A stretch of DNA of 47,878 bases, counting the filler, from an uncultured virus (IMG/VR IMGVR_UViG_2512564001_000010) (taxonomy: Duplodnaviria; Heunggongvirae; Uroviricota; Caudoviricetes). It is 6 parts of one record of this genome, joined end to end, with 100 filler letters (N's around TTAATTAATTAA, not from the genome) between each part and the next. Parts side by side here need not be neighbours in the genome. Positions count along the whole stretch, not along the records: positions 6,005 to 9,744 come from IMGVR_UViG_2512564001_000010; 5 more parts are not named here. One strand, 5' to 3'. A program made the translations under genes and the position numbers. Below are positions 5,905 through 14,569 of the stretch, one piece after another; position 1 is the stretch's first letter, and each line of letters begins with the position of its first letter. The notes below the pieces were generated by a model. It made no database searches. It was not told where the DNA came from and saw only the letters and a list, made by a program, of their open reading frames with translations.

Positions 5905-6004
5905 NNNNNNNNNNNNNNNNNNNNNNNNNNNNNNNNNNNNNNNNNNNNTTAATTAATTAANNNNNNNNNNNNNNNNNNNNNNNNNNNNNNNNNNNNNNNN
6001 NNNN

Positions 6005-8291: not shown

Positions 8292-8519
8292 TTATCCTTT
8301 TTCTTCTAGTGCTTTGACACGTTTAGTGAGCGCATCAAGTTCTGATGACAAATCCTTACCCGGTTCGCCTTTATCGCCTTTATCGCCCTTATCCCCTTTT
8401 TTGGGTAACGTATTAAGTGCTTCAAAGTTGTCATTGGTTTTACTAAAAGCATCACGTAAGGTGTCACCCGTTCCATCATCCGGTTTTGTGCCAATATTGA
8501 TTTTTTTGATTTCTACCAT
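8292..8519 (-). CDS. Small T4 gp9/gp10-like N-terminal motif + collagen-repeat protein (putative tail decoration)
   Basis: INIGTKPDDGTGDTLRDAFSKTNDNF, then GDKGDKGDKGEPGKD, then a coiled-coil end LTKRVKALE. Confidence 0.7.
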   Translation of the reverse strand: MVEIKKINIGTKPDDGTGDTLRDAFSKTNDNFEALNTLPKKGDKGDKGDKGEPGKDLSSELDALTKRVKALEEKG

Positions 8520-8571
8520 CAGTTTACTTTCCTATTGGTATTATCCGCCGTGAATTTTGTCGCATCGGCGG

Positions 8572-9030
8572 TTAAGGCTTTGGGGGTACTGTTCCCCAGG
8601 TGAGATTATTTTGCTTTCCTTTGACTGTAATCTGAATGACTTCACTGGCTGGCGCACTAATCTCATTCATCTCCCAGCCTGACAGGGCCAAGATCATCGT
8701 GGCTGTCCGTTTGTTGGGTAGCTCAATATAAAGTTGGACGGTTTCTCTATTTTGTGCCGCATTTAAAAATGCCGTAAAATTTTCATTTTCGGGATCATCA
8801 ATAAATCCGAGCGATTTCTCAGGGCCTTCAGGCAAATCAGCTATAAACTGCTTGTTCCGATCTATAAGCGTTGTGCAGTCTATAAAGCTTCCTGTTAATC
8901 CTGTTGCGCCTATTGCTCTACAGGTATCCAGAAGTTTCATTGCAGTCACTGCATCCCCTACTTTGCCAAATTTAACCACGGTACCTGCGGGGAGCGTAGC
9001 ATATTCTGGCGAGGTTTTGTTTTCAGACAT
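8572..9030 (-). CDS. Major tail tube protein (non-contractile)
   Basis: IDCTTLID...FIADLPEGPE...ELPN motifs; position after the gp10-like gene. Confidence 0.85.
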   Translation of the reverse strand: MSENKTSPEYATLPAGTVVKFGKVGDAVTAMKLLDTCRAIGATGLTGSFIDCTTLIDRNKQFIADLPEGPEKSLGFIDDPENENFTAFLNAAQNRETVQLYIELPNKRTATMILALSGWEMNEISAPASEVIQITVKGKQNNLTWGTVPPKP

Positions 9031-9744: not shown

Positions 9745-9844
9745 NNNNNNNNNNNNNNNNNNNNNNNNNNNNNNNNNNNNNNNNNNNNTTAATTAATTAA
9801 NNNNNNNNNNNNNNNNNNNNNNNNNNNNNNNNNNNNNNNNNNNN

Positions 9845-9958
9845 GCGTTGAGTCAATCGTTTAACGTAGGGTCTATTCGTGTTTGATTTAACTCTTCGAT
9901 AACCTTGGCTATGTCTGAGCAATCCCTCAACCAACTGATTTATCTGATATTCGTCCAT
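9845..9958 (-). CDS. Small protein downstream of HNH (partial)
   Basis: MDEYQINQLVEGLLRHSQGY...; overlaps the HNH 3' end and is cut by the gap. Confidence 0.5.
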
Positions 9959-10397
9959 TAAGGTTATACTCGTGTATCCAGTCATTACGATGAGCAGCTT
10001 TTTCTTCCTGCTCACGGAACATGCCAGCTTTACGCTGTGCTTTAGTTATTGGATCTTGCTGAATAATTTTGCGGTTATGACATCCCTGACACAGTGATTG
10101 ATGGTTATCTTGCCACCAGAACAGTACATCACTACCTCCCTCAATAGGGATGATGTGATCTACTATCTTCGCGGGTGTATAAATACCTTTGCTCTCACAC
10201 ATCACACAGAGCGGATGGGCTTTCAAATACATCAGGCGGTACTTATCCCATTGGGGAGTATAACCACGCTCTCTACGTGTTCCACGTTGTTTATCCAATC
10301 GGCGTCTGGCTGCTCGTTTATGCGCTTCGCACTTACCCGATTTAACTCGGGTACTACAGCCTGGCTCTGTACATCTTTTTAATGGTTGATACGGCAT
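9927..10397 (-). CDS. Packaging-associated HNH endonuclease
   Basis: RGY...W...HPLCVMC...VDHIIP...NHQSLCQGCHNRK. Confidence 0.92.
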   Translation of the reverse strand: MPYQPLKRCTEPGCSTRVKSGKCEAHKRAARRRLDKQRGTRRERGYTPQWDKYRLMYLKAHPLCVMCESKGIYTPAKIVDHIIPIEGGSDVLFWWQDNHQSLCQGCHNRKIIQQDPITKAQRKAGMFREQEEKAAHRNDWIHEYNLNGRISDKSVG

Positions 10398-10700: not shown

Positions 10701-11031
10701 ATCGTCCTCCTCCCTTGCAAATCAATTCTAATCTTGATTGGCGTGCATCGGATAAAACAACGGCTATCTCAAATCGAGAACCCAGTGTATTAGCACCTTT
10801 ATACACAATGGCGTTGTCAATCGTGATATCAGGACGATAACGCATCCAAATCTTGACGATGGCTTGAGGATAGCGAGTACCAAAGGTTAATAACTCCTGA
10901 CCACGTAGCGCTTTTACTTCTGCCCAGACATCTTCAACATCTACCCAGGTTACTCGCTGGTCACCTAGATTACCGTATGTAATCTCTTGTTTCTGAATCG
11001 TCACACGATGTCTTAATCGTCCTGCTCTCAT
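10693..11031 (-). CDS. Head closure protein (SPP1 gp16-like)
   Basis: MRAGRLRHRVTIQ...W...VWAEV...IWMRYRPDIT. Confidence 0.9.
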   Translation of the reverse strand: MRAGRLRHRVTIQKQEITYGNLGDQRVTWVDVEDVWAEVKALRGQELLTFGTRYPQAIVKIWMRYRPDITIDNAIVYKGANTLGSRFEIAVVLSDARQSRLELICKGGGRFD

Positions 11032-12245
11032 GCGTTGTCCTCCGCATGTTTCTTAACCTCAATATGTTGTTTCCACGCCTGACTAAATTCATCACCGCCA
11101 TCACGAGGCGGTAAGCCTTCCCGTTCACGGGCTTCATTGGGGCACATCACACCGGATTTAATCGCCGTTTCATAACTTAAGAAACGCTCTCTTGGGTTGG
11201 CTCTGAGTAAATCGGCGGTGTCAAATTCCACTTGGTAACGCATACCGGATTGCGGAACATTAAGTAGTAGTGCCGATTTGATTTGCTGCTCGAAATTCGC
11301 TAACCAGGGACGCATGGTAATGGTTAAAAACGCGCGGCTGGCTTCACTAAAATTACTGTAGGTACTGTTGGAATATTCTTGCAGAAAAATAGGGCTGACA
11401 TTGAACATACGGGCAATATCTTCTATCGTAAAACGGCGGGAAGCTAACCATTCTGCATCCTGATTACTCATGCCTAATTTTTCATATCCCATTCCACCTT
11501 CAAGGATTGGCACTTTACCCGCATTTTTTGCGCCTCGATAACGTTCAAGCGCGTCAAGGGCTTTTTGCCCTTTGGCATCATTCAGCCACTCATTGGATTT
11601 AATAATCCCTGCTGCCATCATGCCATCTTTCATCACACTCGCGCCGTGGCGCTGTTGGGCTAGTCCTAAACCTAATGTCTCCCGACAAATCGTAATCGGT
11701 GAACGTCCCATAAACCCATCATCCGTGGCGTAACGTAAATGTAAGATTTCTTCTTGCAGACAGATACGGACTTGACCACTGTAGGGCTCGGTTATCGTAT
11801 AACGGTAACGGTGCTCACTTAATCGTTCAGGTACAACCGCACTCGGCGGATAAGGATGTAATGAAGCGGGCTGTCCGTCTTTACCCCATGTGATAAGCGC
11901 ATAGGCATTACCATTGAGTAAGCAATGGCGCATTAGGGTTCGTTTAAACTGGAAAGGTGTTTGACAATCATTTGGTTTTTCATTGAGCAAATAATCTACC
12001 ACGTGGTTACTTAGCCATTCCCGTGATTCCATACCTTTATCATTGTGTACCCGATATAAAAAACAGGGCATCGTCGCCACCGCTTCACTAATCACCGTAA
12101 CGGCATTGATAACAGCGGGTAAGCCTTCTGCGGTGATCGGTGAGACATATTCGCCTGACCGACTGTTAGGAATGCCAGCCAGTGACAGGAACTCATCAAT
12201 ACTGAGGCTGCGCTCTTCTGCCTTTTTATGTCTGAATGGCCACAT
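11028..12245 (-). CDS. HK97-family portal protein
   Basis: LLNGNAY, ILHLRY, EDIARMFNV, PNEAREREGLPP; likely start MWPF at 12245. Confidence 0.95.
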   Translation of the reverse strand: MWPFRHKKAEERSLSIDEFLSLAGIPNSRSGEYVSPITAEGLPAVINAVTVISEAVATMPCFLYRVHNDKGMESREWLSNHVVDYLLNEKPNDCQTPFQFKRTLMRHCLLNGNAYALITWGKDGQPASLHPYPPSAVVPERLSEHRYRYTITEPYSGQVRICLQEEILHLRYATDDGFMGRSPITICRETLGLGLAQQRHGASVMKDGMMAAGIIKSNEWLNDAKGQKALDALERYRGAKNAGKVPILEGGMGYEKLGMSNQDAEWLASRRFTIEDIARMFNVSPIFLQEYSNSTYSNFSEASRAFLTITMRPWLANFEQQIKSALLLNVPQSGMRYQVEFDTADLLRANPRERFLSYETAIKSGVMCPNEAREREGLPPRDGGDEFSQAWKQHIEVKKHAEDNA

Positions 12246-12799
12246 TATTCCACCTCGGATAATTGGAGCCACCGATCATGTAAATGCGTGGGCTTAGGGC
12301 GATATGCATTGAGTGAACGTTTGGCAATTTCGACACCACTTTCAGGGTAAGCGGGTAAACTGGTGATCGTAATTTCTAGCAATTCAGCCTCAATAACCGT
12401 TCTAAGATAAGGCTTTTCACCAATTTCCCAATGGTCTTTTATCGTCCTAAACGCAAAGCTCATACCGGATATATCCCCCCGTTCAACCAGTGTTAGAACA
12501 TCTCGGCCTAATTGCGTATCCGGCGGGGTAAGCGCAAACCGTAACCCCGTTTCATCTTCACCCAGTTGTAACGTACCCGACGCGGTACGCCCTAACAGGT
12601 TGGTCACGTCATGTTCAAACAAACACCGTGTATCTGTTCCTTTTCCCAGACTGTTTTTAAACGCATAGGGGGCGAAGGTTTCAATAAATTCACCCCACAA
12701 CAGTTGTGAGCGACTATTCCACTTAACCGCATATCCTGTTAGCTTTTTTTCATCAGCAGACAGGCTTGCCGTACGTATTTCAAAATCCGTTGATTTCAT
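12245..12799 (-). CDS. HK97-family prohead protease
   Basis: GYAVKWN, LFEHD, GMSFAF, EITITSLPAYP; likely start MKST at 12799. Confidence 0.93.
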   Translation of the reverse strand: MKSTDFEIRTASLSADEKKLTGYAVKWNSRSQLLWGEFIETFAPYAFKNSLGKGTDTRCLFEHDVTNLLGRTASGTLQLGEDETGLRFALTPPDTQLGRDVLTLVERGDISGMSFAFRTIKDHWEIGEKPYLRTVIEAELLEITITSLPAYPESGVEIAKRSLNAYRPKPTHLHDRWLQLSEVE

Positions 12800-12824
12800 G
12801 GATGAATGACCAGAGGGATTAGCC

Positions 12825-13979
12825 TCATACTCCTGCTCCTTTCGCCTTGACCTCAAGCACTTTAATTGCATTGGAATCGACTAATCCACCGCCTAGATAT
12901 TTATCAGTATGGATCTTGATAAAGCCAGGCTCAGTAATATTGTCAGGCCGTGTACGTGTGCCTGTCTGATGGTCAACAATGGTGTAACCGCGTTTGAAGT
13001 CACCGAGGGCTATCACATCATCATCCATAAATTCAAGGTAATGAACCGATAAACCCAACAGACTATCAGGATCACCCACTTGTAACCGTTCACGCCAGAT
13101 ATAATCACCATTGCCATTTTTCAATTTTTGTACTTTGGCAGCCGTGTTTGAGTTCATCACCCAGACGGCATTTTTACGGTATTTATTTTTTAGCGTGAAT
13201 TTCAGGTCAATCAGACTATCCGCTTCCAGCTTGGTCACTTCCTGCTTTTGCAATGTGCCAAAGCTGCGCGCTTTATCCGCTTTCGTATCACGGGGATAGG
13301 ATAGAAATCCTTTTGCTTTTTTTGTGCCGTTACCACTGACTAAATCGGTTTCTTCGGTATCAACAAAGGTGTCAGCAATTTCACGGGTCAACCAGCCTAA
13401 AATATCGACATCACTAAAATCCAAGATTTCCTGAGTGGTTTTAGGATAGGCATAGACAGGGAATAACTTGATACTGACTTCTTCCAGTTTAGGGGTTGCG
13501 GTTTCGATGCGCGCTTTGCCTTCTTCACCGTGATTGATCACCGCCCCACCAACAGACACCAGTTGCTTATATTCGTTGCTGTGAGTGGTCTTGATAGTAC
13601 AGATTTTACGCATGACGGACTCATCACTGAGACGTTGCATAATCTGTTTATTCAGTTCAGGGATAACGGTATAGCCACCATCAGCCGGAACCCCAGTCGA
13701 AAGCCCGCGCGTTTCCCCTGTCAAAACATAATGCCTTAATGCATCATTTCCCTGTTCTTTTTGTACAGGTTTTGCCGCTAATGTTCTTTCTTCATCAGCA
13801 AGCGCTTCATAACGGGCGATTTCAGTATTGAGGGTTTCCGACTGATGACGCAACGCATCAAAGTTTTTAGCTTCATCTTCGGTCAGTGTTCGTTTTTCTG
13901 TTTCTGCTAATGTCAGCATTGATCGCATTTGTGCCGTTAAATCGGCTTTTTGCTGACGTAATTCAAGTAGTCTTTTCAA
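12825..13979 (-). CDS. HK97-fold major capsid protein (probable TTG start)
   Basis: Coiled-coil delta domain, DGGYTVIPE, GNGTKKAKG, GDFKRGY; GGAG RBS before the TTG at 13979. Confidence 0.93.
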   Translation of the reverse strand: MKRLLELRQQKADLTAQMRSMLTLAETEKRTLTEDEAKNFDALRHQSETLNTEIARYEALADEERTLAAKPVQKEQGNDALRHYVLTGETRGLSTGVPADGGYTVIPELNKQIMQRLSDESVMRKICTIKTTHSNEYKQLVSVGGAVINHGEEGKARIETATPKLEEVSIKLFPVYAYPKTTQEILDFSDVDILGWLTREIADTFVDTEETDLVSGNGTKKAKGFLSYPRDTKADKARSFGTLQKQEVTKLEADSLIDLKFTLKNKYRKNAVWVMNSNTAAKVQKLKNGNGDYIWRERLQVGDPDSLLGLSVHYLEFMDDDVIALGDFKRGYTIVDHQTGTRTRPDNITEPGFIKIHTDKYLGGGLVDSNAIKVLEVKAKGAGV

Positions 13980-14569
13980 GGTTGGCTCCTGCATGCAGTG
14001 ATTGTCTTGACTGAACATGCAGAAAAAAAAGCAGCTAAGGGAAGGTGATATAAACCTTAACCGCTTTTAGTAACCATGAATATTTCAAAATACACCTGCA
14101 TGAATCAGGAACCTCAATTTAACATGATGAAAAATAACAGGAAACAACCTCACAGGAAGGCAAAAAAGATGAGAAAACATGAGAACCAATAATTTACATA
14201 ACTTTACATTAATTATTTATTAAATATCATCAGCTAAAAATTTAGCAGATGTTCTTATCAATTTGTCATTCTCCCAGGTCACTGTTGTAATGACCTCGAA
14301 ATAATCCACTAACCCTTTGATTTACTGCAAGAGGTCAAATTGACCACCCGCTAGGATATTCAATTCATCAAGAAAAGTTGCAATGACAGAATGGGTAATC
14401 CCTTGATTTTATTACTGACGGTCAAATTGACCGTTTGAGATGTTTTATAGAGAGCCTCCCAGTAAAAGAAATATTTTTCTGATAACACTTTTACTCAAAA
14501 GTTAAATTTTATTTATAACTCTATCTATTAAAGAAAAATAGGGGGGGTGTGTAAAAGTTTATGGTTTAA

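Follow-up and report, generated by a model that had tools for sequence, protein, structure and literature searches.

A short stretch at the 3' end of the major tail tube gene of an uncultured virus of the Caudoviricetes (IMG/VR IMGVR_UViG_2512564001_000010) appears to form a -1 frameshift cassette. The cassette would give a minority of tube subunits a C-terminal peptide, here called the TAD tail after its Thr-Ala-Asp repeats, and a separately encoded mini-fibre would dock on that peptide. We analysed 47,878 nucleotides of this virus, including the filler between joined parts of the record, and refer to this whole stretch as the window; all positions count along it. Judging from how the sequence has evolved in relatives, the frameshift product is very probably made and selected for. 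Whether the TAD tail is the docking site of the fibre is evenly balanced in our estimate, and the reading as a whole, a frameshift cassette whose tail docks a mini-fibre, has in our view slightly better than an even chance of being correct.

In the proposed mechanism, most ribosomes would read to PPKP and terminate at the 0-frame stop, and a minority would slip one base back on C_CCA_AAG, aided by a GC stem 6 nucleotides on. Shifted ribosomes would add the 19-residue TAD tail after the Pro-rich linker of the tube (elsewhere also of the capsid) and end on a TGA that overlaps the next ATG, where some could re-initiate and feed translation of the fibre gene. The small protein encoded there, probably a trimer with collagen and coiled-coil segments, would dock on the TAD tail through its gp10-type N-terminus. 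Slip efficiency would set the number of tube or capsid subunits bearing a fibre, and the overlap of stop and start would tie fibre synthesis to tag synthesis.

Probable slip site, stem and -1 frame of the tube gene

The tube gene (9030-8572, minus strand) encodes 152 amino acids and belongs to the Phage_TTP_13 family (PF16463, E 3.1e-63; phrog_158, major tail protein). Its 3' end on the minus strand reads GTA CCC CCA AAG CCT TAA, and the 0-frame product ends in WGTVPPKP. This end holds the slippery heptamer C_CCA_AAG in X_XXY_YYZ phase (8584-8578), which overlaps a run of five C (8586-8582), and one codon past the heptamer the 0-frame stop TAA (8574-8572). On the same strand, a stem-loop at 8571-8545 pairs CCGCCG (8571-8566) with CGGCGG (8550-8545) around a 15-nucleotide loop. 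The 6-bp GC stem begins 6 nucleotides past the heptamer (spacer CCTTAA), within the 5 to 9 nucleotides expected of a stimulatory structure, and is likely the frameshift stimulator. C_CCA_AAG itself is described as highly shift-prone in Escherichia coli (PMC5009743).

Translated from 8584, the -1 frame reads PKALTADATKFTADNTNRKVN and then a stop. The extension (8584-8519, minus strand) can be written PK-ALTADATKFTADNTNRKVN, with 19 residues past PK, and the tail comprises two copies of the heptad motif TAD-x-T-K-hydrophobic. Read from stop to stop, this frame contains no ATG, GTG or TTG with a ribosome-binding site, and because it lacks a start codon of its own it would be reachable solely by shifting. 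The heptamer, the hairpin, the TAD frame and the TGATG at 8521-8517 all lie where a preliminary description of this region had placed them. That description had treated the hairpin and the TAD repeat as separate features; both are present, but they occupy the same nucleotides. Each stem arm is one of the two TAD triplets (ACC GCC GAT and ACG GCG GAT), so that hairpin and repeat amount to one observation.

Each of these features alone is within chance in the window. CCCAAAG occurs 4 times, against 6.0 expected, and an open -1 frame of 19 codons is not rare by itself. Their significance therefore rests on conservation in relatives, in which our searches found 12 distinct cassette versions. The consensus consists of the slip heptamer, the 0-frame stop, a GC stem of 5 to 6 bp and a -1 frame reading PK[AV][LVI]TAD[STA]xK[FLIV]xAD[NST]T. 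C_CCA_AAG is in phase in 10 of the 12, and the 0-frame stop lies 0 to 2 codons past AAG in every one, so that the unshifted products end in PK, PKP, PKS or PKQ. TTP_13 tubes carry the cassette in the window, in several Arsenophonus nasoniae prophage copies and in three further Arsenophonus genomes (G408, G402 and G426). It is also found on a 234-amino-acid Morganella tube with no significant similarity to the window tube (BLASTP E 0.11). Its remaining hosts are HK97-type major capsid genes of Morganella prophages (G324, L024-L026) and of Arsenophonus G402 and G426, capsids whose similarity to that of the window is faint (E 7e-4). In both G324 and G402, the capsid and the tube of one prophage carry it.

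A 21-base version of the pattern, searched in five genomes, gave 8 matches, all at cassette sites, and its reversed control gave 0. The in-phase heptamer occurs in 15 of the 80 tube loci examined, all of them Arsenophonus-type or PY54, and is absent from other relatives of the tube, in phiKO2, in a Klebsiella phage and in Proteus, Morganella, Providencia, Dryocola and Pantoea prophages. A broader DNA pattern applied to IMG/VR returned 36 stretches, of which 13 were true cassettes; the other 23 were rejected as chance matches, in which an ordinary open reading frame (ORF) served as the "-1 frame" or no ORF lay upstream.

Substitutions among the cassettes distinguish the TAD frame from the other two. 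Over the 15 codons common to all 12 versions (66 pairs), synonymous divergence (pS) in the TAD frame is 0.52 and nonsynonymous divergence (pN) 0.19, giving a pN/pS of 0.37, versus 1.76 and 1.75 in the other frames. Variable columns fall at 5 of 15 first, 9 of 15 second and 15 of 15 third codon positions. At the loop residues, where pairing imposes no need, Lys is invariant and the residue after it is always hydrophobic, encoded variously by TTC, TTT, CTA, CTT, CTG, GTT and ATT. By this comparative signature, the -1 frame is evolving as coding sequence.

The stem is conserved as a structure as well. Its 5-bp core is paired in all 12 cassettes, with two compensatory double changes, CG>AU in the Morganella tube and CG>UA in the Morganella capsid, and with wobble changes. 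Covariation of the stem, computed over cassettes that are related to one another, is 0.202 versus 0.103 when shuffled, a value that 0 of 500 shuffles attain, and sliding the partner columns lowers pairing to 17-57%. Conservation, coding signature and covariation are direct observations, as are the genomic co-occurrence and synteny described below; the frameshifting and its rate are inferred.

The run of C at 8586-8582 varies among near-identical prophage copies, with 5 C in the window and 4, 7 or 8 elsewhere (L004, L019, L020, L027, L086, L139 and the public runs X5 and X6). With 4 or 7 C, the tube continues in the third frame, which ends in QSLNRRYDEIYGG and a stop; with the 6 C seen in one contig of X6, the TAD tail would be joined to the tube in frame. 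Decay, assembly errors or a heritable switch could each account for this variation.

The Arsenophonus endosymbiont G426 (L005, L006 = L149, L153, L158, L192) seems to be losing the system: its capsid gene is in fragments and a stop codon interrupts its small gene. Even so, the 26-residue TAD frame is open in both tube copies, despite 8 base differences.

The C-terminus of the TTP_13 tube family looks like an exchange point. Its add-ons (P0041, P0093, P0040 and P0105) are Gly-rich tails, an in-frame Big_2 immunoglobulin (Ig)-like domain, an Ig domain added by frameshift and the TAD tail added by frameshift. None of the 14 tube homologues read, of 120 listed, has an in-frame TAD fusion.

The small gene and its link to the cassette

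The -1 stop of the cassette (TGA, 8521-8519) overlaps the ATG (8519-8517) of a small ORF of 75 amino acids (8519-8292, minus strand) to give the TGATG. A Shine-Dalgarno-like AGGAAAG at 8533-8527 on the same strand serves this ORF and also encodes R-K near the end of the TAD peptide; AGGA(A/G)AG or AGAGGA is found in the remaining cassettes that adjoin a small gene. Stop and start overlap, as TGATG or TAATG, in all eight distinct cassettes with an adjacent small gene.

The preliminary description had credited this gene with a gp9/gp10-like motif and a collagen repeat, and both are present. The protein has a gp10/gp9-like N-terminal motif (residues 1-37), five G-X-Y triplets in the collagen-type run GDKGDKGDKGEPGKD and a short C-terminal helix in the stretch DLSSELDALTKRVKALEE. 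On its own it matches PF07880 (T4_gp9_10_N) with E 7.8e-5 and 23.3 bits (cut-off 25) over profile positions 2-34 of 175, and two shorter relatives have a precomputed match to that family. A profile of the small-protein family matches T4 gp10 residues 3-63 with E 4.6e-6 and a gp9-like connector with E 0.053. PHROGs 677 and 958 also match the protein; PDB profile matches to designer PPR proteins were dropped as sums of weak repeat matches.

The family comprises 17 clusters, whose named sources are all Arsenophonus, Morganella or Proteus. Lengths run from 49 to 100 residues, and the count of collagen triplets is the main difference between members, with PF01391 present in 4 of the 17 clusters (the longer relatives). 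A scan of viral contigs with the Proteus mirabilis relative P0018 gave matches to the N-terminal motif only. In the window, the A. nasoniae copies and G408, the small gene comes after the tube gene; in Morganella, G402 and G426 it comes after the capsid gene. From this position after capsid or tube genes we infer its presence on the virion, and from its domains the 75-amino-acid protein is most likely a trimeric mini-fibre.

The Morganella prophages encode, just after the portal, a further collagen-like protein that may belong to the virion. It has about 315 amino acids, GKDGRDGKDG collagen-like repeats and a CBM_5_12 carbohydrate-binding module (L155:16742-17689 in G324, L024:4112-5056 and L025:4138-5094).

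The small gene and the cassette occur together. Within a sample of 401 genomes, only G001 and G324 have the small gene, and the cassette pattern is found in the same two plus one site in G175, which we rejected as a chance match. The strict cassette pattern occurs on 10 IMG/VR contigs. Nine of them are the 9 contigs that carry close homologues of the small gene, and the remaining one is a G426-type prophage with a broken copy of that gene. Arsenophonus G403, whose related tube ends in WGMAS, has neither heptamer nor small gene. The preliminary description had proposed that homologous tube genes be examined for such an association, and it holds in both genomes of the sample and in all nine contigs: heptamer, stem and TAD frame are conserved where the small gene is present, and the TAD frame bears a coding signature. 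Because the lineages are few and partly linked by descent, the association alone is suggestive, not decisive.

The same comparison narrows one earlier claim. A decoration system on tail tubes was proposed, and the cassette is indeed found on tubes, but it is not specific to the tail: in Morganella and G402 a cassette and the small gene follow the capsid, and the tube has a second cassette.

Proposed docking and its alternatives

Evidence that the TAD motif has to do with gp10-type proteins comes from phages in which it is not produced by frameshifting. We searched the six-frame translations (2.17 million residues) of 138 environmental phage loci from IMG/VR contigs, fetched solely for encoding a gp10-type N-terminus, and found 24 matches to the two-unit TAD heptad pattern. 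Of these, nine lie within about 400 nucleotides upstream of a gp10-type motif, versus 0.70 expected (binomial P 1.4e-8). Collapsed to 12 sequence groups, a grouping made by eye, the count becomes 3-4 of 12 (P 5e-3 to 3e-4), stated as a range because the match in L223 is weak. In L029-L032, a 781-amino-acid gp7-like baseplate wedge protein (phrog_17744, E 1.5e-89) ends in GGGLTADRQDYTADVTVLTVDMTTEP directly before a fibre gene. A 48-amino-acid ORF in L280 ends in LTADNTNFSADSTAMTADATVTP and overlaps by TAATG onto a 406-amino-acid PF07880 protein, and a 55-amino-acid ORF in L211, L259 and L271 ends in FTADTTKETADTTLFTADATEF and is followed by a 189-amino-acid fibre gene. Three further loci (L239, L248 and L270) were not counted, since their TAD-like triple is internal to a protein of about 140 amino acids, 2.5 kb from the gp10N gene. 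The environmental cases involve no frameshift and their TAD codons form no stem, which makes the TAD motif a protein feature in its own right.

The alternative that best survives is that the tail is real and selected but acts alone, as a flexible surface peptide, a weak adhesin or, as with other C-terminal additions to tube proteins, an assembly modulator, and that the fibre gene merely travels with it and docks elsewhere. Four cassettes lack an adjoining small gene (the tubes of G402 and G324 and tubes a and b of G426), TTP_13 tubes bear many alternative short C-terminal tails as well as Ig domains, and linkage with shared descent could explain the co-occurrence. We nevertheless consider this rather unlikely: unrelated phages again have TAD heptads just before gp10N-type fibre genes, with no frameshift involved, the second cassette of G402 and G324 shares its prophage with a small gene 4-5 kb away, and the stop/start overlap is kept in eight of eight cases.

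That overlap would also be expected if the cassette were mainly an expression device, in which shifted ribosomes melt the stem and re-initiate at TGATG, fixing a low ratio of small-gene product and leaving the peptide as a by-product. The position of the stem, between the 0-frame stop and the ribosome-binding site of the small gene, also suits such a role. We regard it as improbable, because the peptide is under purifying selection that extends to loop residues no structure needs, because the peptide is kept, and is longer with three TAD repeats, in cassettes where the chaperone gene and not the small gene comes next, and because the small gene has its own AGGA.

The cassette might also be a decaying relic of a tube-Ig frameshift of the type found in the Yersinia phage PY54, with the Ig domain lost or replaced by the small gene and the 19 codons functionless. 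The heptamer, the PKP ending and the position of the stem are as in PY54, the start of the tail (KVIT..AD) faintly resembles, with a one-codon offset, that of the PY54 extension (KAVIS..DAD), and the C-run changes in A. nasoniae copies break the frame. However, the coding signature persists at high synonymous divergence, the same tail occurs on unlike tube and capsid genes, and the motif is found in unrelated phages as well. This explanation is disfavoured and, in our assessment, very improbable. Hardly credible at all is the absence of any frameshift, with coincidental features and a stem acting in RNA stability or attenuation between genes: although each window feature alone is within chance, no T run follows the stem in the window, the conservation, coding signature and stem pairing across cassettes speak against coincidence, and a -1 frame without a start codon still evolves as coding.

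Several observations weigh against the docking mechanism or limit it. The tail in the window is just 19 residues long, and the window hairpin is weak (-10.9 kcal/mol, z -1.46), with 13 of 200 shuffles folding equally well. Because the peptide and the stem constrain the same bases, the tests of stem and of coding are both blurred. Two of the 12 cassettes, both G426 tube copies, have CCAAAAG (C_CAA_AAG) in place of CCCAAAG and an open TAD frame all the same, so either the canonical heptamer is not essential or this decaying prophage no longer makes the tail. Translational coupling, as proposed in the preliminary description, agrees with the overlap at all eight junctions, but since the small gene has its own AGGA Shine-Dalgarno it need not be obligatory and may be minor. 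The four cassettes without an adjoining small gene fit docking and, equally, a tail with its own function. Co-occurrence partly reflects descent and physical linkage, with the Morganellaceae examples amounting to about three lineages, and the environmental matches were grouped by eye. Finally, TAD heptads are absent from T4 gp6, gp7, gp8, gp9, gp10, gp11, gp12 and wac, so the T4 analogy does not extend to the TAD motif.

The comparative data as a whole support, within what genomes can tell, the interpretation put forward in the preliminary description. A broader synthesis, which we offer tentatively and rate at somewhat below even, is that the TAD heptad is a general, unnamed docking motif for gp10/gp9-type fibres. 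Phages would provide it at the C-terminal end of a gp7-like wedge protein, in a small adaptor ORF or, in Morganellaceae prophages, by way of a frameshift tag on capsid and tube. Complementary synonymous codons of the repeat would form the stimulating stem, slip efficiency would set the cover of head and tail by mini-fibres, and the A. nasoniae C run (4 to 8 C, with 6 C in frame) would be a second, heritable switch.

As far as we found, the parts appended to capsid or tail proteins by known frameshifts are themselves functional domains, usually Ig-like. If the docking mechanism is true, head and tail would instead share a tag of about 20 residues that recruits a separately encoded trimeric fibre, a two-component decoration whose occupancy is set by ribosome slippage. 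The N-terminal anchor of gp10/gp9 type, widespread in phage fibres, would gain a partner motif, and phage display and virion engineering could draw on a natural, portable pair of tag and fibre. The arrangement would also be a compact case of dual coding, in which a peptide repeat is the RNA stem that controls its own synthesis. A simple prediction for annotation follows: where a major structural gene ends in C_CCA_AAG, a short stop-less -1 frame behind it deserves attention.

Genomic setting and known systems

Family and profile searches of the ORFs identify the surrounding region as a siphovirus tail module on the minus strand. Upstream of the tube gene lies a gene for an HK97 gp10-like protein (9510-9046), and beyond the small gene, outside the cassette, follow a G-like tail assembly chaperone (8281-7934; PF16462, E 1.3e-16; phrog_25875) and the tape measure protein (7717-5957), all on the minus strand. 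The chaperone carries a G/GT -1 frameshift at a canonical A_AAA_AAC (7943-7937, in the context GCT AAA AAA AAC TAA), with the T part open to 7710 (7943-7710, minus strand) and adjoining the start of the tape measure gene; phrog_25875 (195 amino acids) matches both the G part and the 43-amino-acid T part. With this site, the window prophage already uses -1 frameshifting.

Further along the minus strand (11028-14018), with functions judged by eye, the order is a capsid-like ORF (14018-12825), a 208-amino-acid ORF (12871-12245) and a portal-like ORF (12272-11028). The capsid thus precedes the portal, as in the Morganella prophages, in which a protease-capsid fusion, the small gene and the portal follow one another. 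Masked bases, seen as X runs in translation, affect ORFs at 9797-10015, a small ORF adjoining a 156-amino-acid cysteine-rich ORF (9927-10397), and at 5957-6000, the end of the tape measure gene.

Several known systems resemble parts of the arrangement. Lambda-type G/GT chaperones likewise arise from a -1 shift at X_XXY_YYZ close to where a tail gene ends, as at 7943-7937 in the window. Their product is an assembly chaperone that leaves the particle, whereas the cassette described here alters the structural subunit itself.

Frameshifting that extends the major tail protein by an Ig-like domain was reportedly described as a class by Fraser et al. in 2006. The closest phage relatives of the window tube, those of the Yersinia phages PY54 and P840 (73-74% identity; 74% for PY54), are of this kind. 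They are homologous TTP_13 proteins whose genes end in CCA AAG CCG TGA, with the identical in-phase heptamer at the same codon and the PKP ending, and a 9-bp stem with a 15-nucleotide loop starts 5 nucleotides past the heptamer; loop length and spacing, at 5-6 nucleotides, match the window. In PY54 and P840, the -1 frame encodes an Ig-like domain of 88 residues (Ig_3, E 2.6e-5, a match below the cut-off). Such an extension is annotated as a separate gene overlapping the tube (gp12/13 in PY54). A review counts PY54 gp12 among the tube proteins with Ig domains (PMC9022992, Table 3), and in Vibrio phage K303 an Ig-like domain is fused in frame (I-set, 25.2 bits, above the 23.7 cut-off). Here, the payload is a heptad peptide of 19-26 residues, too short for an Ig fold and far from the roughly 90 residues of the Ig domain; it also occurs on capsid genes and is genetically coupled to a separate fibre gene. 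Judged by these homologies, the slip site itself is an established type carrying a new payload.

A fixed minority of decorated tube subunits is familiar from SPP1, in which a frameshift is reported to add an FN3 domain to gp17.1, with the two forms gp17.1 and gp17.1* present at 3:1 in the tube (PMC8718954, PMC9022992). That shift is +1 and the appended domain is the decoration, whereas here the appended part would merely anchor a second protein.

Frameshifting is described as able to extend both the major capsid and the major tail protein of one phage (PMC5009743). Capsid and/or tail extensions are named for the Listeria phages PSA, A118 and A500, for Lactobacillus phage A2 and for gene 10 of T3 and T7; head and tail extensions differ and no partner gene lies over the stop, in contrast to the same short motif on both here. 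The extensions in those Listeria phages, A2 and T3/T7 are long.

The putative mini-fibre has its own parallels. SPP1 gp12 is described as a small collagen-like trimeric capsid decoration protein that binds hexon centres directly (PMC7602432). It shares with the predicted 75-amino-acid protein a very small size and a collagen-like segment, and it exemplifies trimeric decoration of the virion; compared by description, it differs in that no gp10-like N-terminus or frameshift tag is reported for it in the passages describing it. In the T4 baseplate, trimers of gp9 and gp10 are held through their N-terminal domains: that of gp9 binds a domain of gp7, and that of gp10 is where gp12 attaches coaxially (PMC3004832). 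The N-terminal motif of the 75-amino-acid protein matches gp10 residues 3-63, and an environmental gp7-like wedge ends in TAD repeats before a gp10N-type gene; the small protein has just the first 37 or so residues of the family and then collagen repeats.

The claim of novelty in the preliminary description stands in part. In the openly readable literature that we searched, we found no description of the combination of tag and mini-fibre, but the slip site is the same as that which adds the Ig domain in PY54 and P840. Frameshift extensions of tube and capsid, small collagen-like decoration trimers and attachment through gp9/gp10 N-termini are already described. What is new is a short shared tag instead of a folded domain, its use on both head and tail, and its genetic coupling to a separate mini-fibre.

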